This document shows, one piece after another, positions 2,381-33,432 of a stretch of DNA of 34,207 nt. The notes under the pieces are model-generated. The model was given only the letters and a program-made list of their open reading frames with translations. It did no database searches and had not been told where the DNA came from. Source of the stretch: a virus (taxonomy: Duplodnaviria > Caudoviricetes). Position numbers and translations under genes: made by a program. The DNA lies in IMG/VR virus record IMGVR_UViG_3300005058_000015, positions 1-34,207 of that record; one strand, written 5' to 3'. Each line of letters opens with the position of its first letter. Within the stretch, counting starts at the first letter, position 1.

Positions 2381-2441
2381 GGGTTACTGAGACACAGAGC
2401 CCCGCGTCGTGCAAAAGGCAAGCACGGCTGCGGGCTTTTTT
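2381..2441 (+). terminator. Attenuator: intrinsic terminator overlapped by an alternative antiterminator hairpin
   Basis: Terminator 2397-2412/2422-2437 plus T-run; alternative gggtt-a-ctg-agaca-cag-agccc 2381-2402 shares 2397-2402. Confidence 0.65.
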
Positions 2442-2457
2442 CGTTTGGGGGCTGCAA

Positions 2458-2673
2458 ATGCAATCACGAGTCATTCCCGAGCTGCGACCGCGTATCGTCG
2501 CTCACCCTCTCTTGTCGGCTTTCCTGTCGCTCAGTTCTGGCCCGATGTTCCGCCAGTCGCGCGACAAAGCGAGGGTGAATCGCTACACGCCTTGTGCGAC
2601 CTGCGGAAAACTCACGAAGTGGAGCCAGTGCCACTCGTGCGCGGCGACTGAGGAGGCTGTGGCAGCACGATGA
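2458..2673 (+). CDS. Small zinc-finger protein
   Basis: CATC...CHSC; ATGA overlap with the next gene. Confidence 0.6.
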   Translation: MQSRVIPELRPRIVAHPLLSAFLSLSSGPMFRQSRDKARVNRYTPCATCGKLTKWSQCHSCAATEEAVAAR

Positions 2674-2771
2674 AGGCATTGAAGGTTCTTTTCTGGGTTG
2701 GCGCAGCCGCGATCGTGGTTGGATACAACGCGCTGCACTACATGGCGCTTTGGAATATGGCGACCCGATGA
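2670..2771 (+). CDS. 33-aa single-TM protein (below the ORF-track cutoff)
   Basis: MKALKVLFWVGAAAIVVGYNALHYMALWNMATR; ATGA overlaps at both ends. Confidence 0.7.
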   Translation: MKALKVLFWVGAAAIVVGYNALHYMALWNMATR

Positions 2772-3271
2772 CCGCTCCCATTCACAACACGAAGCCGGCG
2801 AGACCAGAGCCGACAGAAACGCAATTCTGGTGCCCTGGTTGCAATCGAGATCGGTGCGCATGCCTCCGGCAATCACTCAATTTATTGGGAGCGATCGGAG
2901 TTTTCGTGGGGCTGCTGTTGCTATCACTACTCGCCTCCGACAGGTCAGCCAAGTCCAAGCCCATCGACTACCAGCAGCGCACCATCAACCACCTGGAGCA
3001 AGATCGCGACACCTGGCGAGAGCGAGCCGAAGCCAGCGACCGACTGCGTGCCGACCAGGATCGCTCGCTAGACGCCTTGCTTGCGAAGTTCTCGCGCGTC
3101 GTCACTCCCGTCGAGGACCAGTCCTATCGACTCGGCGAACAAGAAAAAACCATCCACCTACTCCGGCGCGAACTGAAAGCCATCGAAGAACGCGAGCTGA
3201 TTCGAGGCTCGCTGGGCAAGGTGGATATGAGACCGGAAGAAACAAACCCATTCCCTCAAGGTGAACCATGA
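2768..3271 (+). CDS. Membrane-anchored coiled-coil protein (i-spanin/Rz-like topology) with N-terminal Cys cluster
   Basis: CPGC..CAC, then hydrophobic LLGAIGVFVGLLLLSLLA, then long charged heptad-like helices; ATGA overlaps. Confidence 0.7.
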   Translation: MTAPIHNTKPARPEPTETQFWCPGCNRDRCACLRQSLNLLGAIGVFVGLLLLSLLASDRSAKSKPIDYQQRTINHLEQDRDTWRERAEASDRLRADQDRSLDALLAKFSRVVTPVEDQSYRLGEQEKTIHLLRRELKAIEERELIRGSLGKVDMRPEETNPFPQGEP

Positions 3272-3639
3272 ATTTCGCTCAGTTCTTGAAGCTCTTGCAA
3301 ACCGTCCTGGCGTTCGCTCCGAATCTCGGCACGCTGCTCAACACGCTCTTGACCGGCAAGACGTGGAACGAAAAGCTCGCCATCGTCGGCACACTCATCG
3401 ACACGATTCTGGCCAACCTGCCAGCGGCCAAGGCTTGCATCGAGGCCAATGCCGTGATGGCCCTCGACGCCGAGCAAGAGGAAGCCCTGGTCTTTGAGAC
3501 CTGCGGGCTATTCCGTCGCAAGCCGGCCGGTGAAGTCGACGCCGATGCCTTTGACGGCACGAAGCTCAAGGCGATTTTCGCGCTGCTGCAGCCGTTCCTG
3601 CCGTTGCTCCTGAAGCTGATTGGGCTGCCAATCGCATGA
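3268..3639 (+). CDS. Amphipathic/hydrophobic helical protein, possible holin-like
   Basis: Leu-rich helices at both termini; SD aaggtga; ATGA overlap. Confidence 0.7.
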   Translation: MNFAQFLKLLQTVLAFAPNLGTLLNTLLTGKTWNEKLAIVGTLIDTILANLPAAKACIEANAVMALDAEQEEALVFETCGLFRRKPAGEVDADAFDGTKLKAIFALLQPFLPLLLKLIGLPIA

Positions 3640-3728
3640 TCACCGTTCTCGTTACGCTCGCCGTTGTTTTCATAGTTGGCGTCGTCGCCCTGGCCGTGTT
3701 CTTCCTTCGCAATCCGCCGATCCGATGA
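3636..3728 (+). CDS. 30-aa single-TM protein (below the ORF-track cutoff)
   Basis: MITVLVTLAVVFIVGVVALAVFFLRNPPIR; ATGA overlaps at both ends. Confidence 0.75.
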   Translation: MITVLVTLAVVFIVGVVALAVFFLRNPPIR

Positions 3729-4738
3729 CCGAGCCTGTTTTCCAACTTCCGCCCGACTGGCGCATCACGCCAGCAGTTTTGCCGCTCGCCGAGAAGGTGA
3801 GTTGGGCAAACGATTTCGTCGGCATCTCGGAAGCCTGGAAGATCACCAAGGGCAAGGGCGTCAAGGTGTGCATTCTTGACACCGGGTGCGACCTGCATCA
3901 TCCCGACTTGCGCTCGGGCATCGTCGAAGCGGTGGACTTCACACGCTCGCCGTACGGCCCGCAAGATCGAGCCGGGCATGGCACATGGTGCGCGGGAGCG
4001 ATCGGCGCACGCGGCCGAATCGAGGGCATCGCGCCCGAATGCTCGCTGATGATCGGCAAGGTGCTCGGCGATAACGGCGCGGGAGACGAGGAAGGTATCT
4101 ATTCCGGGCTCATGTGGGCGCTCAACAACGGCGCTGACATCGTATCGATGAGCTTGGGCGGGCCGCGCATGAGCCGCACGATGCACGAACTGATTATTCG
4201 CTTCGTCAGCCGTCGCCAAAAGTGGATCTTCGCCGCCTCGGGAAACGACGGCACCTACAACCGCATGGGCTACCCGGCCGGGTGGAAAGAAACCATTTCG
4301 GTGGGAGCCGTCGACAAGGAAGGTCGTCGCGCGAAGTTCTCCAACGCGGGCGATAACCTCGATATCGTTGCCCCAGGCGTCGACACGCTCAGCACGATTC
4401 CGCTGCGTGACGGCGGCTATGGTTCGATGAGCGGCACGTCGATGGCCACGCCGATCGTGGCGGGCGTAGCTGCTCTGGCGCTGGCCAAGCATCGAGCGGC
4501 TGGCGGGGAGTCGGGTCTCGATACTCTCGACGACATGCGCGAGCACTTGCGGAAGTCGGCAACGGATACCGGCGCACCAGGCCACGACCCTGAGACCGGC
4601 GCGGGCATCATCAACGCACCGCGACTGCTCAGCCGCATTTCCAAGGATGCAGACCTGCCGCAAGCCGGCGAAGCGTCAATTACGATTCCGTTCCCGATGC
4701 TCGGGTACAAGACCCTGACACTCATTTTCTCGCCCTAA
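3725..4738 (+). CDS. Subtilisin-family (S8) serine protease, intracellular-subtilisin-like
   Basis: Catalytic motifs ILDTG, GHGTWCAG, AASGND, GTSMATP intact; no signal peptide or I9 propeptide; start 3725 chosen from the ATGA overlap. Confidence 0.95.
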   Translation: MTEPVFQLPPDWRITPAVLPLAEKVSWANDFVGISEAWKITKGKGVKVCILDTGCDLHHPDLRSGIVEAVDFTRSPYGPQDRAGHGTWCAGAIGARGRIEGIAPECSLMIGKVLGDNGAGDEEGIYSGLMWALNNGADIVSMSLGGPRMSRTMHELIIRFVSRRQKWIFAASGNDGTYNRMGYPAGWKETISVGAVDKEGRRAKFSNAGDNLDIVAPGVDTLSTIPLRDGGYGSMSGTSMATPIVAGVAALALAKHRAAGGESGLDTLDDMREHLRKSATDTGAPGHDPETGAGIINAPRLLSRISKDADLPQAGEASITIPFPMLGYKTLTLIFSP

Positions 4739-4748
4739 GTGGCATGGC

Positions 4749-6266
4749 ATGTTTTCGGCAATGGTAGCAGCAGCGATCATCGCGATTGGCGCAGACCTTC
4801 CGCAGCCGGTGCAAACTCCGGCGAGTGCGGTTGTGGCTGCGCTGACCGACGCGCAATCATTGCCGCCGTCGACACGCCCGTTCGTTCGCTACCAGTGGTG
4901 CCCGCCCGGATCGGCCAAGGAACTGCCGGCGCTGGTGTCGTATGCGGTCAACGCTGCTGCCTCGAGCGCCAACACGATTCAGAGGCCGGTGATCATCGTC
5001 GACGGTGCTCTGATTCGCTGGGACTTGCGCTTGCTCGCCCCCGACCCCACGGAGTTGGTGCGACTCGGGAAGGTGTGGGACGACCTCGCGCAAACCGACC
5101 CGTATTTCACGGTTCGCAAGCAATCGGTGGTGGGCGGCAAGGTGCTGCTCGTCATGGCCTTCGCGCCACATCTCCCCCAGGAAATCACGCAACTTTCGGT
5201 GCTGCTCAACAGCAAGGCTCCGGTGCTCCGCGCCGATTGGATGCTTGTGAAGATGCTCACGACCGTTGACGGTGGCCAATACTACAACTTCGCCGGCATC
5301 GAGCGGAACCCCAAGCAGGGCACGGCGCAGGCCGCGTTTCTTGCCTCAGTGGGAGCCGATGAAAAGAAATCGCAGCAACTCTCCGGCGACCAACGCGCGG
5401 CAATGTTCCGCTCGGAAGTGACCGGCAAGCCGCGCCGTATCGACGTGTTCCGTGGTGTAGCGGGTCGCTCGGGAACAGGGCTCGTGTCAGTCACGCACGA
5501 CGTTAAAGACGGCGACGTGGGCGCGAATCAGAATCCCCTGCTGTCGATTCTGCGCTTCAACGACCGTGCTCGAGAAGTGATCGCCGAGAAGAATAACGGC
5601 TTGCATATCTACGCGCTCTTCGACGCCTTTGGACGCTTGCAAGATGAAGTCCCGCCTAACATTGCGGCTGACGCGACAATCCCAAGACCGCACACACAGC
5701 GACTTGAGCCCGCCCGAGGGTGCATCGTTTGCCACGGTCCTGATGACGGCTGGAAGCGCTTCGGTAATGACATTGCGACTTTGCTCACCGCCAGAAACGG
5801 CAATCGTTTCGACGTTATTGACGACCTTGCCGAAAATAAGCTGACCACCGACCAACTCCTAGACCGTTTGGCAGGGCTCTACGCTGCTGGCGACGACCTG
5901 AACCGCAAGATGCAACGCGGGCGCGACGACTACGCCATAGCTGTCTGGCGAGCCACGGGCGGCATGGAACCGGCTGCCGCTGCTGCGGGAATTGGCAGCG
6001 TGTTCGACGCCTACCGCTATCAGCAGGTGGGAGCCGACGGCGCGTGCCTGGAGCTCGGCTATCGAGTCGCACCAGAGAACGCCTCGCAGGCAATCAACTG
6101 GCTATTGCCACCGTTGCCGGCCGCTGCTGATGGCGTGTCGCCTGAAGACGGTCGAATCGCGGCGCTCAAGGCTGGAATCAAGATCAATCGCGGCGAGTGG
6201 GAGCAGGTCTACGCCGACGCTCAGGTCCGCGCGAACAAGCAACTGGAGAAGATCAATGCGAAGTAA
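4749..6266 (+). CDS. Exported 505-aa protein with one heme c motif (CIVCH)
   Basis: Hydrophobic N-terminus MFSAMVAAAIIAIGA; CxxCH at 5721-5735; motifs IRWDLR, DPYF, RADW, NGLHIYAL recall an uncharacterised CxxCH family. Confidence 0.8.
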   Translation: MFSAMVAAAIIAIGADLPQPVQTPASAVVAALTDAQSLPPSTRPFVRYQWCPPGSAKELPALVSYAVNAAASSANTIQRPVIIVDGALIRWDLRLLAPDPTELVRLGKVWDDLAQTDPYFTVRKQSVVGGKVLLVMAFAPHLPQEITQLSVLLNSKAPVLRADWMLVKMLTTVDGGQYYNFAGIERNPKQGTAQAAFLASVGADEKKSQQLSGDQRAAMFRSEVTGKPRRIDVFRGVAGRSGTGLVSVTHDVKDGDVGANQNPLLSILRFNDRAREVIAEKNNGLHIYALFDAFGRLQDEVPPNIAADATIPRPHTQRLEPARGCIVCHGPDDGWKRFGNDIATLLTARNGNRFDVIDDLAENKLTTDQLLDRLAGLYAAGDDLNRKMQRGRDDYAIAVWRATGGMEPAAAAAGIGSVFDAYRYQQVGADGACLELGYRVAPENASQAINWLLPPLPAAADGVSPEDGRIAALKAGIKINRGEWEQVYADAQVRANKQLEKINAK

Positions 6267-7179
6267 GGCAGCCATCGTGGCCGCTTTGGTGATCGTGTTC
6301 TCGGTGCAGCTCGCCGAAGCCTGCCACCGTTGCGGCTACGCGAAGTGTGTCGGCTCTTGCAAGACTGTCGAGCCCATTGGCGGCCAATACTTTGGCGTCT
6401 ATGCCACCGAGGAAGGCGCGCCGCCGAACGTCGTCGTCCGCTACTGGAAAGGTGGCGTCGAATACGTGCGCGTCAAGCAGCAATGCACCAAGGACAAGGA
6501 CCACGAAACCGGCTGGTGCTGGAAGTTTATCCCGAAGCAGGAATACACCTACGCGCAGCCAAAATCCTACGTGCCATACGCTCAGCAGGGCACGACCGTT
6601 TACGGGCAAATCAACGAGACTTCGACCTACGGGCATCCGACCTACCAGAGCTACGCCGCTGCGTACACGACCGACCCGGCCAGCTTTATGAACCAGGCGT
6701 TCCGCCTCGTGTCTCAGGCTCAGTCGGTGGCGCAGCAGGGGCAATCGGACTACACGGCCAACGCGGCGGCGCTTAATGCCAACGCCCTGGAAGTGGAGAA
6801 GATTCGCGCCGTGTCGAATGGCTTTGTTGCCGCGATGGCTGCGACCAAGACCACGCCAGACACGGTGAATCGTACGACGACGTTCCAAGCTGCGACCGGG
6901 CCAGCAGGCCAGATTGAACAACCTCAAGTCTTTACCGCGCAGGGAGGCGCGACGGTTGCCAAGTGCGCCGGTTGCCATTCGACCAACCCCCAGGCTCAGG
7001 CGGCGATGAGTTTCAGCAACCTCGCCGCGCTGAATGCCGACCAGCGAATGCAGGCAATCAACGCCATTGTGAGCGATCGAATGCCGAAAGCGCCGGGCCA
7101 ACCGCTCACACCGGACGAGGCCGCGGCGATCGTGAAAGAGTTGAGCCAGCCGCCTGTAGCGGCCGGGCAGAAGTTCTAA
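6256..7179 (+). CDS. Exported protein with C-terminal class I cytochrome c domain
   Basis: Signal peptide ending AEA-C; CAGCH at 6964-6978; distal ligand motif RMPK..PLTPDE at ~7078-7120; SD ggag before ATG 6256. Confidence 0.8.
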   Translation: MRSKAAIVAALVIVFSVQLAEACHRCGYAKCVGSCKTVEPIGGQYFGVYATEEGAPPNVVVRYWKGGVEYVRVKQQCTKDKDHETGWCWKFIPKQEYTYAQPKSYVPYAQQGTTVYGQINETSTYGHPTYQSYAAAYTTDPASFMNQAFRLVSQAQSVAQQGQSDYTANAAALNANALEVEKIRAVSNGFVAAMAATKTTPDTVNRTTTFQAATGPAGQIEQPQVFTAQGGATVAKCAGCHSTNPQAQAAMSFSNLAALNADQRMQAINAIVSDRMPKAPGQPLTPDEAAAIVKELSQPPVAAGQKF

Positions 7180-7199
7180 CCAAGAAAGGCAGGTGATCC

Positions 7200-7526
7200 T
7201 TGAAAGGTCTAATTTGCGTTCTGGCGATTGTGGCGGTGCTGTTCGCGTGCGCTCCGCAGGCGGAAGCGTGCCCGCTGGGCAACGGTTTCGCGGTGAACAA
7301 CTTCGGCGGATTCTCTCAGCCGGTGTTTGTGAACCAGGGCTTCGGCTTTGGTTCGCGTGCGTTCTTCGCGCCGCAAGTGGCCGTGAATCCGTTTGCGTTC
7401 AATAGCTTTGGCGTGAGCCCGTTCGTGGCGTTCAATGTCGGTCATGGCTTCCGTGGCAACGCGGTGATCGTGAATCGGCGTGGATTCTTCGGCGGCAACC
7501 GCGTGGTGATTCGGAGAGGTTTTTAG
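7200..7526 (+). CDS. Exported Gly/Phe/Asn/Val-rich low-complexity protein
   Basis: TTG start with aggtga SD; signal peptide ending AEA-C; repeated FG/GF and VN units; no acidic residue in the mature part. Confidence 0.8.
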   Translation: MKGLICVLAIVAVLFACAPQAEACPLGNGFAVNNFGGFSQPVFVNQGFGFGSRAFFAPQVAVNPFAFNSFGVSPFVAFNVGHGFRGNAVIVNRRGFFGGNRVVIRRGF

Positions 7527-7549
7527 CCCTCACCTGGGCTTTTGATAGG

Positions 7550-7594
7550 GCCGTCGGCGGGGACTTTGGACTGAGGCGACCGCCGGCGGCTTTT
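7550..7594 (+). terminator. Terminator-like hairpin with a large loop
   Basis: gccgtcggcgg 7550-7560 / ccgccggcggc 7580-7590, then tttt. Confidence 0.55.
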
Positions 7595-7624
7595 CACGAC
7601 GACAGCCATAGAAAGACTGCCGCC

Positions 7625-7843
7625 ATGACCAATAGCAGAAACGAGCGAGTACAGCTTAGCGCGTCCGACAAGATGGCCATTGGCTTTGGCTTCGTGTCGC
7701 TCATCGGTTCGGTTGTGGCGTCGACGGCGATCATCGTGAGCATCTTCTACAGCACGACGGGAGAGATTCAGCGAGCGAACGCGGTGCAAGACATTCGCTT
7801 GGACGCGCACGATGCGGAAATTGCGAGGCTCCGGGGGAAGTGA
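7625..7843 (+). CDS. Single-TM protein with C-terminal coiled coil, possible holin-like
   Basis: Hydrophobic MAIGFGFVSLIGSVVASTAIIVSIF followed by IRLDAHDAEIARL. Confidence 0.7.
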   Translation: MTNSRNERVQLSASDKMAIGFGFVSLIGSVVASTAIIVSIFYSTTGEIQRANAVQDIRLDAHDAEIARLRGK

Positions 7844-7846
7844 ACC

Positions 7847-8044
7847 ATGTCACTCGCTCGCGTCACGTTCGACCCTGACCAGCCGAAGCTGGTGATCGAG
7901 GGGCAATTGGACCAGCGCGAAAAGGTGTTGCAGATTCGGCAGACACTCGTGGGCAACGTGGATTTGTTCGAGGCGATTCGAGACCTGAACGCGCAGAGGA
8001 AACTGGTGCGAGTAACCGTCGAAGTGGTCAGCCATGAGTCGTAG
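7847..8044 (+). CDS. Hypothetical protein
   Basis: Tightly packed co-oriented ORF. Confidence 0.6.
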   Translation: MSLARVTFDPDQPKLVIEGQLDQREKVLQIRQTLVGNVDLFEAIRDLNAQRKLVRVTVEVVSHES

Positions 8045-8610
8045 TGGAGGGAGCGCGGATGGCAGTTAATGCACGGGCCGAAATCTATAAACACATCCAG
8101 ACGGTGCAGCGGTTACTTGGTCGCTGTATTCGCAATCTGATGTTGCGCGGCGAGGTGCATGATGCTTCCAGGCTGGAATCGCCAGAGGCGGAAATCTTCG
8201 AAGTGGCAACCGAGAAGCTTGCCGGTCTCACCTACGGGTCGGACGAGTACAAGGCTGCCCTGGCTGAGATGAAGCCGGCGCTCGATCACCACTACGCGAA
8301 CAATCGGCATCACCCTGAATTCCATGCCCGCCTTGAGTGCGGAGGATGCTTCAAGAAGTTTCCAGATGGCTGGGAGAAGTGCTGCGACGCCTGCGGTTAC
8401 AACGTTTGGCCACGTTCGCCATGCGTCGACAAGATGACGCTGTTGGACCTCGTGGAAATGCTATGCGATTGGAAGGCAGCGACGATGCGCCATCGTGATG
8501 GCGATATTCGGCGCAGCGTCGAAATCAATCAATCGCGATTTGGATACGGCGACGAGTTGAAACAGATTTTCCTCAACACGATTGATGAAATTGAGAGCAA
8601 CCGCGATTGA
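8044..8610 (+). CDS. DUF5662-like HD-superfamily protein with inserted zinc ribbon
   Basis: KHI..HDASRL..HHYANNRHHPE..DLVEMLCDWKAA; insertion CGGC..CDAC; start 8044 (GTG) or 8059. Confidence 0.75.
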   Translation: MEGARMAVNARAEIYKHIQTVQRLLGRCIRNLMLRGEVHDASRLESPEAEIFEVATEKLAGLTYGSDEYKAALAEMKPALDHHYANNRHHPEFHARLECGGCFKKFPDGWEKCCDACGYNVWPRSPCVDKMTLLDLVEMLCDWKAATMRHRDGDIRRSVEINQSRFGYGDELKQIFLNTIDEIESNRD

Positions 8611-8797
8611 AGAATCACCGAAAGAGCGAAAGGTCAGCTATTTCATGCTGGGATGGGTCGCCGGTTGTCGCAACTTGTCTCCGTGGGACTGCCCGCCGTT
8701 CGGTAGTTTCTTCGCGCGGCGTGAGTGGCGAGAGGGAGTTTACGCGGCGATCCGTGGCGCGATAGTGCAGAGTCGAAATAAGGGGTGCGGGAAGTAG
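8585..8797 (+). CDS. Ribosome modulation factor (RMF/CrpP)-like small protein
   Basis: GWVAG...S..DCP......R.EW..G...A aligns by eye with the RMF pattern GYQAG...S..MCP.....R.QW..GW..A. Confidence 0.55.
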   Translation: MKLRATAIEESPKERKVSYFMLGWVAGCRNLSPWDCPPFGSFFARREWREGVYAAIRGAIVQSRNKGCGK

Positions 8798-8821
8798 TTC
8801 TCTTTTTTGTGAGGCGTAGTC

Positions 8822-9484
8822 ATGCAATTTCGTCAGTCGTTTTCCGAATGTCCCGACCGTGGCTGGATTCTCTTTAGCGGCAATCCGCTCTTGATTGACA
8901 AGGATAACCCGCTCAGTGCCGATCGACTGGCCGTGCATTACGGCGGCCCGACGGTGATCGAAGAATACCCAGGCGTGTTTCTGGTCGACGGTGCGAATCC
9001 GGCGCTGATTGACGCCTCGGGTGCCGGCGTGGGAATCGACATCACCACCGAGGACGGCGACCCGGACGGATGGCGCGTAGTGTTCTCGGAGCCGATCGTC
9101 CCTGGCGCGCATGTCGGGCTGTGGAGTCCACCAGGGCAGGAGTGGGACGAGAACACCGACCCGCAAGTATTGAGTTCGTGGTTCGCGAGCGGCGGCACGT
9201 TTGGCGTCGTGATCGAAGGCAGCTTGGCCGAGGGCGCAATCCGCATCTCGCATATTCCAATCAACGACGGCCGGCGCGAAGTATTTCGCAAGATCGACCA
9301 GTACAACGCACTGCGAAGGCTGGTCACGTCGACGATTGAGGAAGTGGAGCCGCCGGAGCCGCCGGAGCCACCGCCAGTTGAGCCGATCGTCGTCGAAGGT
9401 GCGACGCTGGCGAACTGGGCCGAATACGACGCCTTCGTAGAGGGCGTTCACGCGCAGGCTGTAGCAGCCTTTGGAGAGCGCTAG
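8822..9484 (+). CDS. Acidic hypothetical protein with Pro/Glu linker, possible virion protein
   Basis: 220-aa ORF; EPPEPPEPPPVEP linker encoded by a gagccgccg tandem repeat at ~9347-9375. Confidence 0.7.
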   Translation: MQFRQSFSECPDRGWILFSGNPLLIDKDNPLSADRLAVHYGGPTVIEEYPGVFLVDGANPALIDASGAGVGIDITTEDGDPDGWRVVFSEPIVPGAHVGLWSPPGQEWDENTDPQVLSSWFASGGTFGVVIEGSLAEGAIRISHIPINDGRREVFRKIDQYNALRRLVTSTIEEVEPPEPPEPPPVEPIVVEGATLANWAEYDAFVEGVHAQAVAAFGER

Positions 9485-10713
9485 TGCCCAACGAGATTCA
9501 ACAATTCGAGTTCTCCGAAGAACTGTCTGCGGGCACGTTCACACTCACGCTTGGCGCTGAGACTACGGCCGCAATCGACTGGGATTACACGACCGGCGAA
9601 ATCGAATCAGCGCTGGGGGCCCTGACCGGCATTGGCCCTGGCAACGTCCAGGTGAATAGCTGGGACGGCACGACGCTCGTTGTCGAGTTCATTGGCGCGT
9701 TGGCCAACACGAACATCGCGCAAATGACGTGCGACGCGACGAATGCCGGCTATGACACCGGCGACGTGGACGTGCAAATCACGGTCAACGGCGTGGCCGG
9801 CGTCAACGAGGTGCAGCAAATCAGCTTCGGCCAGACGCCAACCGGCGGCGATTTTCGCATCAACGGCATCCTCGTGAACGGCGGTCATGCCGCAACCGCA
9901 GCAGATATCGAGGCGGCGATCGAGGACGCTGGCGGTGCAAATACTCCATGCTCCGTGGCGGGCGCAGGTCCGTTTGATGTGACCTACGACGCTCAAGGCG
10001 ATATCAGCGATAGCCTATTGGATTTCACCGACTCGACTGTCTATCTCGTGCCGCTCAGTAGCACGGAGACGCAGGCCGGCGGAACGGGCGTCAACGAAAC
10101 GCAAACGATCCTGTGGGATAACACCGCTCTCGGGTGGCTGGCGTTCGGCGGCGAGCAAAGCGACACGATGGTTACTGGCGCGACTACGGCCGTCGAGTTC
10201 CAGGTGGCGCTCGAGGAAATCGCCGCACTGACCGGCAATGTGTCGGTGACGGGCACCAGCCTTGCCACTGGCCTCACGGTCGAATTCGTCGCGGGGCTCG
10301 CTGAAACCGATGTCGGCTTGATTGACCTACGCGAGTCGGCAGGCATCTCCAAGGCGACCACGACCCAAGGCGTGACCGCAGTTCAGCAGCAAGAAGAAAT
10401 CACGCTGCCGGCCAGCACGACCGGCGGAACATGGTCATTCACCGGCTCGATTGTCAGTCTCGACTGGGATGCGACGGCCGGCGAGATCGAGGCGGATATC
10501 GAGAGCAGCCTCTCGATTCAGTGCGCCGTGAGCGGCAGTGCGCCGCAATGGACGGTCACGCGCGACGCCACAGGCCCATTCTCAGGGCTGGAAATCGGCG
10601 TCTCCAACGTGACTGGCGACGTGACTTGTGAAGAGAGCACGACGCAGGAGGGCTCGGGCGGAGCTGCGCCAGCTTACTACCAACGCATGATGGCACGACG
10701 GAGGGCAGGTTAA
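9484..10713 (+). CDS. Four-repeat acidic beta-rich protein, probable virion decoration/fibre
   Basis: About 100-aa repeats starting NEIQQ, NEVQQ, NETQT, QQQEE, each with a G(T/D)F..A.I/FE.A(L/I) core; basic C-terminal tail. Confidence 0.75.
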   Translation: MPNEIQQFEFSEELSAGTFTLTLGAETTAAIDWDYTTGEIESALGALTGIGPGNVQVNSWDGTTLVVEFIGALANTNIAQMTCDATNAGYDTGDVDVQITVNGVAGVNEVQQISFGQTPTGGDFRINGILVNGGHAATAADIEAAIEDAGGANTPCSVAGAGPFDVTYDAQGDISDSLLDFTDSTVYLVPLSSTETQAGGTGVNETQTILWDNTALGWLAFGGEQSDTMVTGATTAVEFQVALEEIAALTGNVSVTGTSLATGLTVEFVAGLAETDVGLIDLRESAGISKATTTQGVTAVQQQEEITLPASTTGGTWSFTGSIVSLDWDATAGEIEADIESSLSIQCAVSGSAPQWTVTRDATGPFSGLEIGVSNVTGDVTCEESTTQEGSGGAAPAYYQRMMARRRAG

Positions 10714-12327
10714 ATGCCAGATATCAGACAAGGCGCGGCCTTCCTTCAGTTCGGCCCGGTCGTGGCGCTCGATGGAAATACTTCGATTGAGGATCTTGAT
10801 TCCGCGAATATCACAGTTCGCTGGAACGCCAATGGCACGCGACTAGCGCACGCCGGGAACATCATTCACCGCGGCAACGGCGATTACGATTTGGGAGACA
10901 TTGCCTATTTAGGCGCTGGCAGTCTCACGCTCGAGTGCTTGCGGCCCACTGTCAACCTGCCGTGCGTCGTCGACTATCAGGTTATGACCGCCAAGCGGTA
11001 CGACGAGAAATACGGCAACGGGGGAGTGGACGCCAATGTGACGTTCATCGCCAACGGAACCATCACAGAGAACAGCATTGCGAGCGATGCGATTACGGCC
11101 GCGAAGATTGCCCCGGCGGCAATCGACGCAGCCACGTTTGCCTCCGATGTTGACGCCGAAATTCTTAGCTACATCGTCAACGACGCCACGCAAATCGACG
11201 CATCGGCGCTCAATACGCTTTCTGGCCATGATCCAGGTGGCACTCTCGCCGCATCGTCTGAAGTGACCGGGCTGAACGTCAATACCCGCGCCAATCTCAT
11301 GGTGCCAATCGAGATTGAGACACCCGACGCGAGCACGCAGGTTTATAAGATTCGCCTGTTCCTGTTCGATGTCACCGGCAACATGGAAGCGCCGGACTCG
11401 ACGCCGACCGTGGCACTCGTCAACGCTGCCGGCACCGACCGCAGCAGCCGGCTATCTTCGGCCAGCAACCCGAGCACTGGCGTCTATTCGTGGGATTACA
11501 CGTCGACGGCTGGCGACACCGAAGAACAGCTTGTGTGGACATTTACGGTTGTCGAAGGCGGCGCTACTCGCACCTATCCAGCAACGAGCTACGTGGTCGA
11601 AGAAACCGCATATCGCTTCAGCAGCTCGGATCGCGCCAACCTCACGGCGATATACAACAAATTGCCGAGTAAGAATTACCTGCCTGGCACGAACGATTCA
11701 ACGGGCAATCTGACCAAGGGAACGAATCTGATCGGCTTCAACGACGTAAGCCAGTCGAACATCCGCACCGCGTTGGGCATGAATGGCGCAACCTTCGACG
11801 ACGATATGGCGATGGTCAAGAACATAGGCATTCTGGCCATGCGCAAGGATGCCGGGTTCGCAAGCGACCTGGAAAGCTCGATTGGTCTGGTTAGCTACGT
11901 CAATCGAGACACCAACTCGGGCGCTGGCTCGTTCGACAACACGACGGATAGCGAGCAGGCGATTCGAGATAATCACCCTGCCAACTTCTCAGCTCTCGCA
12001 ATCACGGCCGGCGGCTGCACAACAGTCGGCACGAACGCGGACAAGACGGGCTACACCGGCAACGTGACGGACAAGACCGGATTTGCGCTCTCGTCAACAG
12101 GACTTAATGCTTTGACGCTGACAGAGCCCACAAGCACCGACCGAACCTCATGGACTTTCGTGCAACACGTTCTCGCCATCGGGCTCCGCATGTTCGGGCG
12201 CCGAGAGCGGATTGGCAACGACACGTCAGGGCTCCTCAAGACTCTCAATACAGGCAACACGGTTATCGGCAATCAGACTTATTCGGCAGTATCGAACGGC
12301 AACGAAACCATCGGGAATTCAACGTGA
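10714..12327 (+). CDS. Putative virion fibre/decoration protein
   Basis: Ser/Thr/Asp-rich; pentad repeats ITENSIASDAITAAKIAPAAIDAATFA; DKTGY/DKTGF repeat; central Ig-like segment. Confidence 0.7.
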   Translation: MPDIRQGAAFLQFGPVVALDGNTSIEDLDSANITVRWNANGTRLAHAGNIIHRGNGDYDLGDIAYLGAGSLTLECLRPTVNLPCVVDYQVMTAKRYDEKYGNGGVDANVTFIANGTITENSIASDAITAAKIAPAAIDAATFASDVDAEILSYIVNDATQIDASALNTLSGHDPGGTLAASSEVTGLNVNTRANLMVPIEIETPDASTQVYKIRLFLFDVTGNMEAPDSTPTVALVNAAGTDRSSRLSSASNPSTGVYSWDYTSTAGDTEEQLVWTFTVVEGGATRTYPATSYVVEETAYRFSSSDRANLTAIYNKLPSKNYLPGTNDSTGNLTKGTNLIGFNDVSQSNIRTALGMNGATFDDDMAMVKNIGILAMRKDAGFASDLESSIGLVSYVNRDTNSGAGSFDNTTDSEQAIRDNHPANFSALAITAGGCTTVGTNADKTGYTGNVTDKTGFALSSTGLNALTLTEPTSTDRTSWTFVQHVLAIGLRMFGRRERIGNDTSGLLKTLNTGNTVIGNQTYSAVSNGNETIGNST

Positions 12328-12518
12328 TATCACTCGTCAAAGAAGTCACGCTCGAATGGGAAATGCCCTTGCAGGCAGAGGGTGAGGAGTCGCCGGTGGA
12401 GCTCTACGGCTCGCACCTCTGCGGGGAAATCAACCTTGAGCCATTGCTGCGCGGATCGATCAATCTCGGACCAATGTTACTAGGCGACATCGTAATCAAT
12501 GGGTGCAGTGATGGATGA
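12324..12518 (+). CDS. Small hypothetical protein with G-x-I-N-L-x-P repeats
   Basis: GTGA overlap with the upstream stop; LCGEINLEP/LRGSINLGP/LLGDIVING. Confidence 0.6.
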   Translation: MISLVKEVTLEWEMPLQAEGEESPVELYGSHLCGEINLEPLLRGSINLGPMLLGDIVINGCSDG

Positions 12519-12828
12519 CGGCAAGCCGCTCTATATCGGGCAAGACAATCTCGTCGAATGGCGATTCATGCTGAACGCTGCGACCGAGGAATACGTCAAC
12601 GATGCGACGGTCACATTCACGGTCAAAGACAGCGACGGCAACACCGTGGCAAGCGGATCAATGTCCTATCTCGCCGCCAGCGACGGCATCTATCAGGGCG
12701 TCGTGCCCGATGATACCGACCTGGACGACGGCGACACCTACACAATCGAAGTAACTGGAATCAGTGGAACGAGCAAGGGATTCCGTAGGTTCACAAGGGA
12801 GGCGATGTACCAGGGGGCAGAGTGCTGA
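12511..12828 (+). CDS. Small Ig-like (BppU N-terminal-like) structural protein
   Basis: ATVTFTVKD..G.Y.G....D.D....Y.IEV pattern. Confidence 0.6.
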   Translation: MDDGKPLYIGQDNLVEWRFMLNAATEEYVNDATVTFTVKDSDGNTVASGSMSYLAASDGIYQGVVPDDTDLDDGDTYTIEVTGISGTSKGFRRFTREAMYQGAEC

Positions 12829-13514
12829 TGATCTGGGCCGAGCGAGTAATTGTCGCATGCGCACGATGCCAGAAGCCATTTGAACGAATGGCGTCGGAAG
12901 CCAAGAGAGCAAAGGTGCATTTCTGTAGCCGCGACTGCTACAAGCCGCCAGTTGACGGTAGATCGTGCAAAAAATGCGGCAAGACTTATAAGCCAAAAAA
13001 ATGGAACAGCGGGTTTTGTTCCGACAAGTGCTTTCGTGAGGAACAGTCGGCGAATCGCAAACAGGGCAGGTGTCGCGTATGCGGCAAGGCCACGAAGAGA
13101 ACCAAGAGGGCTGATGGCGATGGTTACGCCTATGCCCTGACGTGCGGAGCGAAGGAGTGCAGGAAGAAGCCAGGCAATGCGATAAACCGTTTGATTTCTG
13201 AGGTCGGTGTAGTGTGGGCGGCTTCGGCTTCACTCGCCCTGTCGCGATTGAATCAGCAGGCATCGCGCGAACGCAGGTATGGCAGAGATCCGTGGCTCAG
13301 AAAATGCGAGGCAATCGTGGGTTCGTTCAAGGGCAGGCATGTCAATGGCACAGGGAGGGTGGCCAAGCCTCCTGTTGATAACTGGCACGAGGCGGTAGGA
13401 ATCGCTATTCGACGCATTGATCAGCGAGCAAAGCGAAGCCAGCAAACGAAGTGGGAACGAAAGGCAGAAACGATGTGCAGGAATTGGCGACGAAAGGAAG
13501 TGTGGTATGGCTAG
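12828..13514 (+). CDS. Cys-rich basic Zn-binding protein (CxxC / FCSxxC repeats)
   Basis: CARC..FCSRDC, CKKC..FCSDKC, CRVC..TCGAKEC; basic helical C-terminus. Confidence 0.7.
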   Translation: MIWAERVIVACARCQKPFERMASEAKRAKVHFCSRDCYKPPVDGRSCKKCGKTYKPKKWNSGFCSDKCFREEQSANRKQGRCRVCGKATKRTKRADGDGYAYALTCGAKECRKKPGNAINRLISEVGVVWAASASLALSRLNQQASRERRYGRDPWLRKCEAIVGSFKGRHVNGTGRVAKPPVDNWHEAVGIAIRRIDQRAKRSQQTKWERKAETMCRNWRRKEVWYG

Positions 13515-32274: not shown

Positions 32275-33114
32275 CTACGTCCAAAGGCTCGGCGGCTCAG
32301 TCGGCTCTGCCGCGCAAATCTTATCTACCTTGTAGTGCTGATAGAACATTCTCGGCGACGAGTGCCCAAGGGACTCCGGGCCGGCTCCGGGCCGCTCACG
32401 CTCGCAATACGAAGCCGATCCACGGCGAATCCACCGGCTTGTCCCGCCAACACCGGCCAGCGATGCAAGCTGCTTGAACGCGCGGAACCACTGCCGGCGC
32501 TTGATGCGAATGCCCCAAATGTGTCTTCTCGCAGGGTCATGAAATGAATCGATCAGTGATAGTGTTTCGCTTGAGAATTTCCTGCGCACGATGCGTCCCG
32601 TTTTGTTCTGGACGATGGAAATAAACCCGCCAGGCTGAATAAATGCACGCTCGAACGTGAGGATGTCGCCAAGCCTGAGGGTCGACTCCCACTTTGCCGG
32701 CAACAGGGACGACCAGTAGCCGGCCCTGGGGACTGCCGTGCCGCGAAAGTTGCCGGGCAGCGCCTTCGCGGTGGCGATCAGCGCGAGCATGTCTTCGCGC
32801 AAGTAGCCGTCAATCACGCGGTCGACTGTACGGATTGGGCGGAGCTTCCGCGGTGGCTGTGAGACTAACGAATCCGCAAAGGCTTCCAGCCAAATCGTCT
32901 TGAGCATCCTGCGTCGACCGGCGATGGTTTCCCGAGCAAATCCCTGCTCGATCATCCAAGCCAGATACCGATTCACCGTGTCGTCGGTGAGGTCGGCAAA
33001 CTGTGCTTCGCGCCCAAGAAACTCGCCGAACTTGTCGACGCAGTTGCGAAGCTGAAAAGCGTAACCCTTTGATACATCTCTGGATAAACAATACGACCCT
33101 ACGTAAGCGCGCAT
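32275..33114 (-). CDS. int: Tyrosine recombinase/integrase
   Basis: SAM-like core-binding domain; catalytic R (LRLGD), K (NKTG), WIRR (W at the HxxR His), LGH, HY; SD aaggtga. Confidence 0.9.
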   Translation of the reverse strand: MRAYVGSYCLSRDVSKGYAFQLRNCVDKFGEFLGREAQFADLTDDTVNRYLAWMIEQGFARETIAGRRRMLKTIWLEAFADSLVSQPPRKLRPIRTVDRVIDGYLREDMLALIATAKALPGNFRGTAVPRAGYWSSLLPAKWESTLRLGDILTFERAFIQPGGFISIVQNKTGRIVRRKFSSETLSLIDSFHDPARRHIWGIRIKRRQWFRAFKQLASLAGVGGTSRWIRRGSASYCERERPGAGPESLGHSSPRMFYQHYKVDKICAAEPTEPPSLWT

Positions 33115-33322: not shown

Positions 33323-33396
33323 GGGCGATTAGCTCAGTTGGTTAGAGCGCCAGCTCGACAAGCTGGAAGTCACAGGTTCGAGCCCTGTATCGCCCA
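33323..33396 (+). tRNA. tRNA-Val(GAC), no encoded CCA
   Basis: Full cloverleaf: acceptor gggcgat/atcgccc, D stem gctc/gagc, anticodon stem ccagc/gctgg with GAC at 33357-33359, T arm acagg-TTCGAGC-cctgt. Confidence 0.95.
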
Positions 33397-33432
33397 CTGG
33401 AATGCCCTCCCTTCAGAAAGGTAGGTCAGAAA

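Follow-up and report, generated by a model that had tools for sequence, protein, structure and literature searches.

A candidate protease-based lysis cassette accompanied by two predicted exported heme proteins in tailed phages

The closest described counterpart of the gene block reported here is the holin-endolysin-spanin cassette, as in S-R-Rz/Rz1 of phage lambda. We analyzed a 34,207-base stretch of viral DNA (Caudoviricetes; IMG/VR record IMGVR_UViG_3300005058_000015, hereafter the window), in which nine plus-strand genes encode five small proteins (g1 to g5), a peptidase of family S8, two proteins with the CxxCH heme motif (BIG and CYT), and a small predicted secreted peptide (GF). Like the lambda cassette, this is a late-region block with small membrane proteins beside a hydrolase that has no signal peptide, and, as in lambda-type cassettes generally, unrelated hydrolase families exchange in one slot. 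The two differ in the hydrolase, here a general protease (S8, M10, C1, or M12A), and in the addition of two heme proteins and a secreted peptide. Because S8 is the only hydrolase among the nine genes, and the peptidoglycan hydrolase gene that defines holin-endolysin cassettes is not among them, we keep this cassette apart from that class although the layout is alike.

The reading that we favor, tentatively and with somewhat less than even confidence, is lysis by the protease with the assistance of a periplasmic two-heme redox unit. The better supported half, that the protease acts as the lysin, is probable on the sequence evidence. Holin-like membrane proteins would release the signal-less protease onto the host wall, which is probably rich in protein and would be digested, while a predicted exported BIG-CYT unit, with BIG as the catalytic heme and CYT as its supplier of electrons, would weaken or prime the wall from the periplasm together with the small secreted peptide. 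A bolder version, which we regard as unlikely, holds that a protease replaces the endolysin and that a phage-encoded periplasmic heme enzyme (of a new P460-like family or a CCP/MauG) attacks the planctomycete wall of cross-linked protein by oxidation, as a widespread third route of lysis by tailed phages; the phage genes would then indicate which wall chemistry is load-bearing in Planctomycetota. The preliminary description of this locus had proposed either a lysis module or a redox module. Protease lysis gains support because a single slot next to holin-like genes is taken by any of four mutually unrelated protease families. Lysis and redox, in turn, probably do not exclude each other, because a di-heme CCP/MauG enzyme replaces the heme pair in the closest S8 relatives.

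The window's protease has the features of peptidase S8, and it is intact as previously described. It matches PF00082 at E 1.5e-51 (175.9 bits against a cut-off of 21.8), the catalytic D52 and H85 and the oxyanion N174 are invariant in the alignment, and S239 was read from the sequence within a GTSMA motif. BIG was found in 79 loci, nearly all of them phage-like, in records of up to 408 kb. These loci and the window fall into 62 groups that share less than 90% identity. Four identical copies (L063-L066), spaced by about 90.8 kb within a single metagenome contig that is likely an assembly concatemer of genome G026, entered the count once. A protease lies within 9 kb of BIG in 31 of the 46 groups that have at least 1.5 kb of upstream sequence. 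By family, 13 of the 62 groups have M10, seven S8, seven C1, and five an M12A-like protease, never two together; a cut S8 gene behind the block in locus L027 was overlooked in this count. The picture is similar in 27 whole virus records, two of which are the same phage: six have S8, ten M10, three C1, and four an M12A-like enzyme, and 23 of the 27 hold exactly one family. Of the remaining four, two have BIG at the contig edge, and the other two are genomes G012 and G017, in which none of these families was recognized. On a 50-tip BIG tree built with FastTree, the protease family changes 13 times, compared with a mean of 17.8 and a minimum of 14 after shuffling. The BIG protein of the window is nested among 11 M10-linked genes with a support of 0.97. 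A separate group of phage M10 proteins (L215-L235 and others) has twin-arginine-like N-termini and no BIG nearby.

The heme genes are exchanged as well. In the S8 genes closest to that of the window, a g4-like gene precedes the protease and a signal-bearing di-heme CCP/MauG gene directly follows it. A search with CCP returned 11 phage loci, with S8 just upstream in ten (six of the seven outside the four seed records) and, according to a filter, a small secreted peptide downstream in eight. These substitutes match PF03150 at E values of about 1e-47 to 1e-49, and those in L116, L118, and L153 carry both the two CxxCH motifs and the PF03150 domain of true CCP/MauG members. BIG and CCP never occur in one locus. 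In an S8 tree of 76 tips, the protease of the window has a CCP-linked enzyme as its sister, within a 16-tip clade (support 0.82) of nine CCP-linked, six BIG-linked, and one unlinked enzyme; this proportion of 15 of 16 is inflated, since the collection favored linked S8 genes. As its S8 groups with CCP-linked enzymes and its BIG with M10-linked genes, the window looks like a recombinant that took S8 from CCP-type cassettes and BIG from M10-type cassettes.

From the slot swap and the heme anatomy, we infer by analogy that BIG and CYT are the equivalent of a di-heme CCP/MauG enzyme: the pair would likewise provide one catalytic and one electron-transfer heme. It differs in that BIG has another predicted fold and the two hemes are spread over two genes; BIG itself has one CxxCH and no PF03150 match, and we do not count it as a CCP/MauG member. 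In L244 (1878-3164) a third type, a 428-aa CxxCH protein, stands directly behind M10, and a gene for a small, secreted, Gly-rich product comes next. The profile of the CCP-type peptides matches neither GF nor CYT, and homology was rejected. Thioredoxin was also rejected as a co-partner, with 0 of 62 BIG groups and 2 of 79 M10 loci. Two further observations concern these loci. The CCP-type cassettes L277-L287 mostly insert a 240-295-aa protein with a signal or transmembrane (TM) segment and no Pfam match between CCP and the small peptide, and a PSCyt1-PSCyt2-PSD1 heme protein lies about 5 kb from S8 in a 160-kb phage record (L181:2707-5082).

The preliminary description had treated the S8 protease and the CxxCH proteins as the unit. 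Since S8 is present in only seven of 32 protease-linked groups, we rejected it as the defining partner; the conserved core is instead BIG, CYT, and the small peptide. A second CxxCH gene follows BIG in all 49 groups with enough sequence, and a small signal-bearing, acid-poor peptide follows CYT in 33 of 47 groups, compared to 4 of 556 control positions. Cys is found near the mature start in 18 of these 33 peptides. By a hydropathy rule, applied in place of a signal predictor, the N-terminus is hydrophobic in 48 of 53 BIG and 48 of 49 CYT proteins and in none of 32 linked proteases. In two loci (L056 and L075) an HNH-like gene is inserted between BIG and CYT. At the protein level, BIG has 61 close clusters and 3117 clusters at 50% identity (E<=0.001). 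In the Atlas, the clusters closest to BIG are 80-91% viral, and PSCyt1 fusions from Planctomycetota and Myxococcota appear at greater distance. Among 185,579 species genomes, a pattern-limited search found only three BIG loci, all on contigs of metagenome-assembled genomes (MAGs) and one duplicating a viral record; a chromosomal origin of the cluster is thus unsupported. GenBank phages and GenBank plasmids gave one weak BIG match each. A mainly non-phage, chromosomal distribution without conservation in related phages had been named beforehand as evidence against a phage system, and the relatives proved to be phage-borne and conserved.

The location of the block was also reconsidered. In the window, 6.4 kb separate it from the terminase gene downstream, and it had been compared to the lambdoid lysis position upstream of terminase. 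Among carrier genomes, the block is found after the tail genes, before terminase, or inside the head cluster, and a fixed lambda-like position was rejected. For example, in G014 and G016 it has the tail genes on one side and the integrase on the other, and in G027 it is flanked by replication genes and terminase.

Structural models of BIG have pLDDT (predicted local distance difference test) values of 91 and 87. In structural comparisons, the top five matches to its core (aa 170-347) are all cytochromes c'-beta or P460 (Z 6.5/5.8/5.7, root-mean-square deviation (rmsd) 3.6-3.9, 111-114 residues aligned), while the next unrelated match scores 4.1. The best match (Z 6.5, rmsd 3.6, 111 residues) is a moderate one, and the full model finds the same family at Z 3.2-4.9. 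Foldseek returned nothing significant with the full model. The BIG profile had no matches among PDB sequences and BIG none in Pfam. The modelled core is tentatively predicted to have a P460/c'-beta-like fold. In these cytochromes, as in BIG, CxxCH lies near the end of the aligned domain, whereas the BIG core shares only 13-16% identity with them and sits in a protein of 500 aa with large helical flanks. Residues R229, D251, E276, C325, C328, and H329 are invariant among 28 sequences with 19-49% identity. The conservation of R229, D251, and E276 together with the heme motif suggests that BIG is an enzyme, and its export and heme attachment are predicted. CYT combines a signal-like N-terminus, a region rich in A, T, Q, G, and Y, and a C-terminal class I-type cytochrome c. 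It matches PF13442 below the cut-off (E 8.3e-05), and its relatives match PSCyt1. C237, C240, H241, M276, and P277 are invariant among 28 sequences and an MP pair stands downstream of CxxCH in 47 of 49 CYT proteins, so that CYT fits, at the level of sequence, a class I cytochrome c with CxxCH and a distal Met. An Atlas search with CYT gave leads only. Cellular PSCyt1-fused proteins of Planctomycetota and Myxococcota, whose clusters carry PSCyt1, match BIG in their Atlas models with TM-scores of 0.71-0.73, and by this comparison BIG and CYT look like a split form of them; the cellular proteins differ in being fused, often with WD40 or DUF4384 domains. Longer fused forms of BIG were not found in our searches, which is weak evidence.

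Small TM, TM-coiled-coil, or amphipathic genes adjoin the protease, or are fused to it, in many loci, and the g3-type build of a TM segment plus coiled coil flanks it in many. Thirty such neighbors gave four holin matches and three Rz-like ones (one protein having both), all weak (PHROG E 0.005-0.05; holins 0.008-0.05). Some g3-type analogues are among the proteins with such a match; no spanin pair was identified, with no systematic lipobox test. Look-alikes of g4 stand directly beside the protease in L019, L050, L116, L118, L121, L153, L244, L281, and L286, and g4-like segments form protease ends in L015, L037, L046, and L061; these look-alikes were judged by eye, and a profile recovered only some. 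Short TM open reading frames (ORFs) resembling g5 accompany the protease in L050, L052, L061, and L074. In addition, a two-TM holin-like family with a TEFW-like motif is located directly upstream of S8 or C1 in three loci (L001:8557-8892, L052:8283-8564, and L070:17906-18286).

No peptidoglycan hydrolase was detected among the 51 ORFs of the window by Pfam and PHROGs profile scans, in agreement with the preliminary description. Outside the window, Amidase_2 and phage lysozyme were found in none of the 27 virus records, and SLT, M15_3, M15_4, M23, NlpC/P60, GH25, and Amidase_3 in none of the five near-complete records (at least 90% complete). A Pfam scan recognized no muralytic family among 145 of 146 called proteins (at least 95 aa) of G027, G014, and G016, nor among the 108 scanned proteins of G012 and G017. 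A canonical endolysin-holin cassette elsewhere in the full genome would have overturned the original proposal, and none of the endolysin families searched for was found in complete relatives. Searches for close phages by terminase and capsid returned only copies of the phage in the window.

The host is indicated, by inference from sequence, to be a planctomycete. The hints are the PSCyt1 matches, one member in a Planctomycetales MAG, and DUF1580 in G014, a family whose range we take to be planctomycetes. Other members were binned with an archaeon, Acidobacteriota, Nanopelagicales, and Parcubacteria, which we read as misbinned phage contigs. Two papers describe planctomycete walls as dominated by protein, with cysteine-rich YTV proteins (PMC12673574), and report a disulfide-bonded protein sacculus (PMC2754498). 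A literature search without subscription papers or supplements found no phage lysis system based on such proteases or heme proteins. If the favored reading is true, tailed phages can exit without cutting peptidoglycan, bringing their own exported c-type heme enzymes. The cassette would then allow a direct test of which component, protein or peptidoglycan, is load-bearing in the planctomycete wall. It would also give the first functional context for BIG, a large uncharacterized family of heme proteins with its 3117 clusters.

Several observations weigh against lysis by the protease and, in particular, against its coupling to the heme unit. It is not obvious how an oxidative enzyme could break disulfides, planctomycetes do have peptidoglycan according to PMC12673574, and 3 of 11 scanned M10 proteins match PG_binding_1 at or above the cut-off. 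The missing peptidoglycan hydrolase is an absence of detection, scored in the carriers with no comparable phages as controls. In the five near-complete records, searches that had no positive control likewise found no GH108, GH19, or muramidase, and the genome search overlooked a C1 protease known in G027. The holin matches are weak and the genes of the window match no holin family, the fold of BIG is assigned at Z below 8 with no Foldseek match of its core at E<=0.001, and the block lies among head genes in L041, L077, and L052. Protease loci frequently have no heme pair. Among the best 80 of 209 S8 loci, three have BIG nearby, four have CCP/MauG, and 73 have none; the 79 M10 loci comprise 21 with BIG, two with a thioredoxin-like gene, 53 with neither, and three unscored. 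A search of whole records for BIG among heme-less protease records found it in 0 of 50 (S8) and 2 of 45 (M10). Two genomes carry BIG and show none of the four proteases, in scans that covered 64 of the 71 proteins called in G012 and 44 of the 50 in G017, and in four jumbo phages M10 is 20-48 kb away from BIG.

The last three of these points, the protease loci that mostly have no heme gene, the two genomes that have BIG and no recognized protease, and the wide spacing in jumbo phages, also speak for the alternative that survives best. Here the protease and holin-like genes lyse the cell, and BIG-CYT-GF or CCP forms an independent late accessory that removes periplasmic peroxide or NO and sits among late genes with no further connection to them. 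CCP, P460, and c'-beta proteins are associated with peroxide and nitrogen-oxide chemistry, which fits such a role. We consider this alternative rather unlikely, since two unrelated heme systems occupy the same place directly behind the protease, the adjacency persists through the 13 protease swaps and through moves of the whole block within genomes, and a plain detoxification gene would not need a conserved secreted peptide. Even under it, the same literature searches found no account of exported cytochrome pairs encoded by dozens of unrelated phages.

In a second alternative, the small secreted peptide is a substrate of the heme enzyme and is modified or cross-linked to build a surface coat or envelope reinforcement, which would delay lysis or block superinfection, and the protease trims this material or later removes it. 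MauG-family enzymes and MbnH offer a precedent in that they modify the products of neighboring genes, both heme types come with a small secreted peptide of low complexity (33 of 47 groups and 8 of 11 loci), 18 of the 33 peptides have the Cys near the mature start, and the invariant R, D, and E residues of BIG suggest catalysis. The peptides are, however, alike in composition and not in sequence, the proteases have no signal peptide and stand beside holin-like genes, and the phages would still need an unseen lysin. We judge this proposal to be improbable. Weaker still, and very improbable, is lysis by an unrecognized peptidoglycan hydrolase with the whole block as an accessory for, e.g., receptor removal or virion release from a matrix: planctomycetes have peptidoglycan, most proteins of the scanned carrier genomes have no Pfam family, the endolysin searches have blind spots, and the window is a fragment, yet no record tested gave a match, including the five near-complete ones, and where holin-like genes occur the adjoining hydrolase is a protease.

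As for the window itself, the nine ORFs of the preliminary description are all present on the plus strand, with the first six linked by five ATGA overlaps (Table 1). The two CxxCH proteins and the Gly/Phe-rich protein described as exported all have hydrophobic N-termini, with CxxCH at residue 325 in BIG and at residue 237 in CYT. The hairpins reported at both ends do fold, and neither is listed by a terminator scan. Neither g1 nor g2 has a relative in the 16 loci tested, and membership of g1 in the cassette is doubtful; g3 itself matches no family. Just outside the boundary drawn earlier, a TM and coiled-coil gene is possibly part of the cassette, as genes of the same build, recognized by eye, close the CCP-type cassettes L153, L281, and L286.

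Table 1. Features of the gene block and its flanks (positions in the window)
Feature	Position	Strand	Remarks
Hairpin + T-run 5' of block	2395..2450	+	-23.9 kcal/mol; absent from terminator-scan list
g1, 71 aa, two CxxC motifs	2458..2673	+	no family in Pfam/PHROGs
g2, 33-aa weakly hydrophobic peptide	2670..2771	+	hydropathy maximum 1.70
g3, one TM segment + predicted coiled coil	2768..3271	+	candidate holin- or spanin-like
g4, amphipathic 123-aa protein	3268..3639	+	candidate membrane-disrupting protease partner
g5, 30-aa single-TM peptide	3636..3728	+	hydropathy 3.13
S8 subtilase, short N-terminal extension, no signal peptide	3725..4738	+	candidate lysin
BIG, 505 aa, predicted exported mono-heme c protein	4749..6266	+	candidate catalytic subunit
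CYT, second CxxCH protein	6256..7179	+	candidate electron carrier
GF, small predicted secreted peptide	7200..7526	+	G/F/V/N/R-rich, acidic residues nearly nil, Cys right behind signal
Terminator-like hairpin	7540..7600	+	-31.1 kcal/mol; absent from terminator-scan list
72-aa TM + coiled-coil gene outside the earlier boundary	7625..7843	+	hydropathy 2.29

The window encodes terminase, portal, a protease-capsid fusion, tail tube, and integrase, together with a tRNA-Val gene, and is a fragment of a probably temperate tailed phage; it is regarded as a fragment because this virus record has no terminal repeat and no replication gene was recognized in it. The integrase (32275-33114, minus strand) lies beside tRNA-Val(GAC) (33323-33397, plus strand), a possible att region. 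Upstream of the terminase, positions 8044-13514 contain a DUF5662 gene and several large uncharacterized proteins, one of them with weak tail matches, and at 1081-1488 there is an IS1595-type zinc-ribbon ORF that is apparently truncated or joined to unrelated sequence. In other carriers, CAP-domain or CAP-like genes are found near the module (L076:12305-12865 and L007:18118-18591). Finally, a clade of jumbo phages (L003, L004, L010, L021-L023, L025, L030, and L034, with L007 in part), in whose tested members M10 is 20-48 kb distant, has a conserved 165-aa gene before BIG and a gene of about 1200 aa on the opposite strand.

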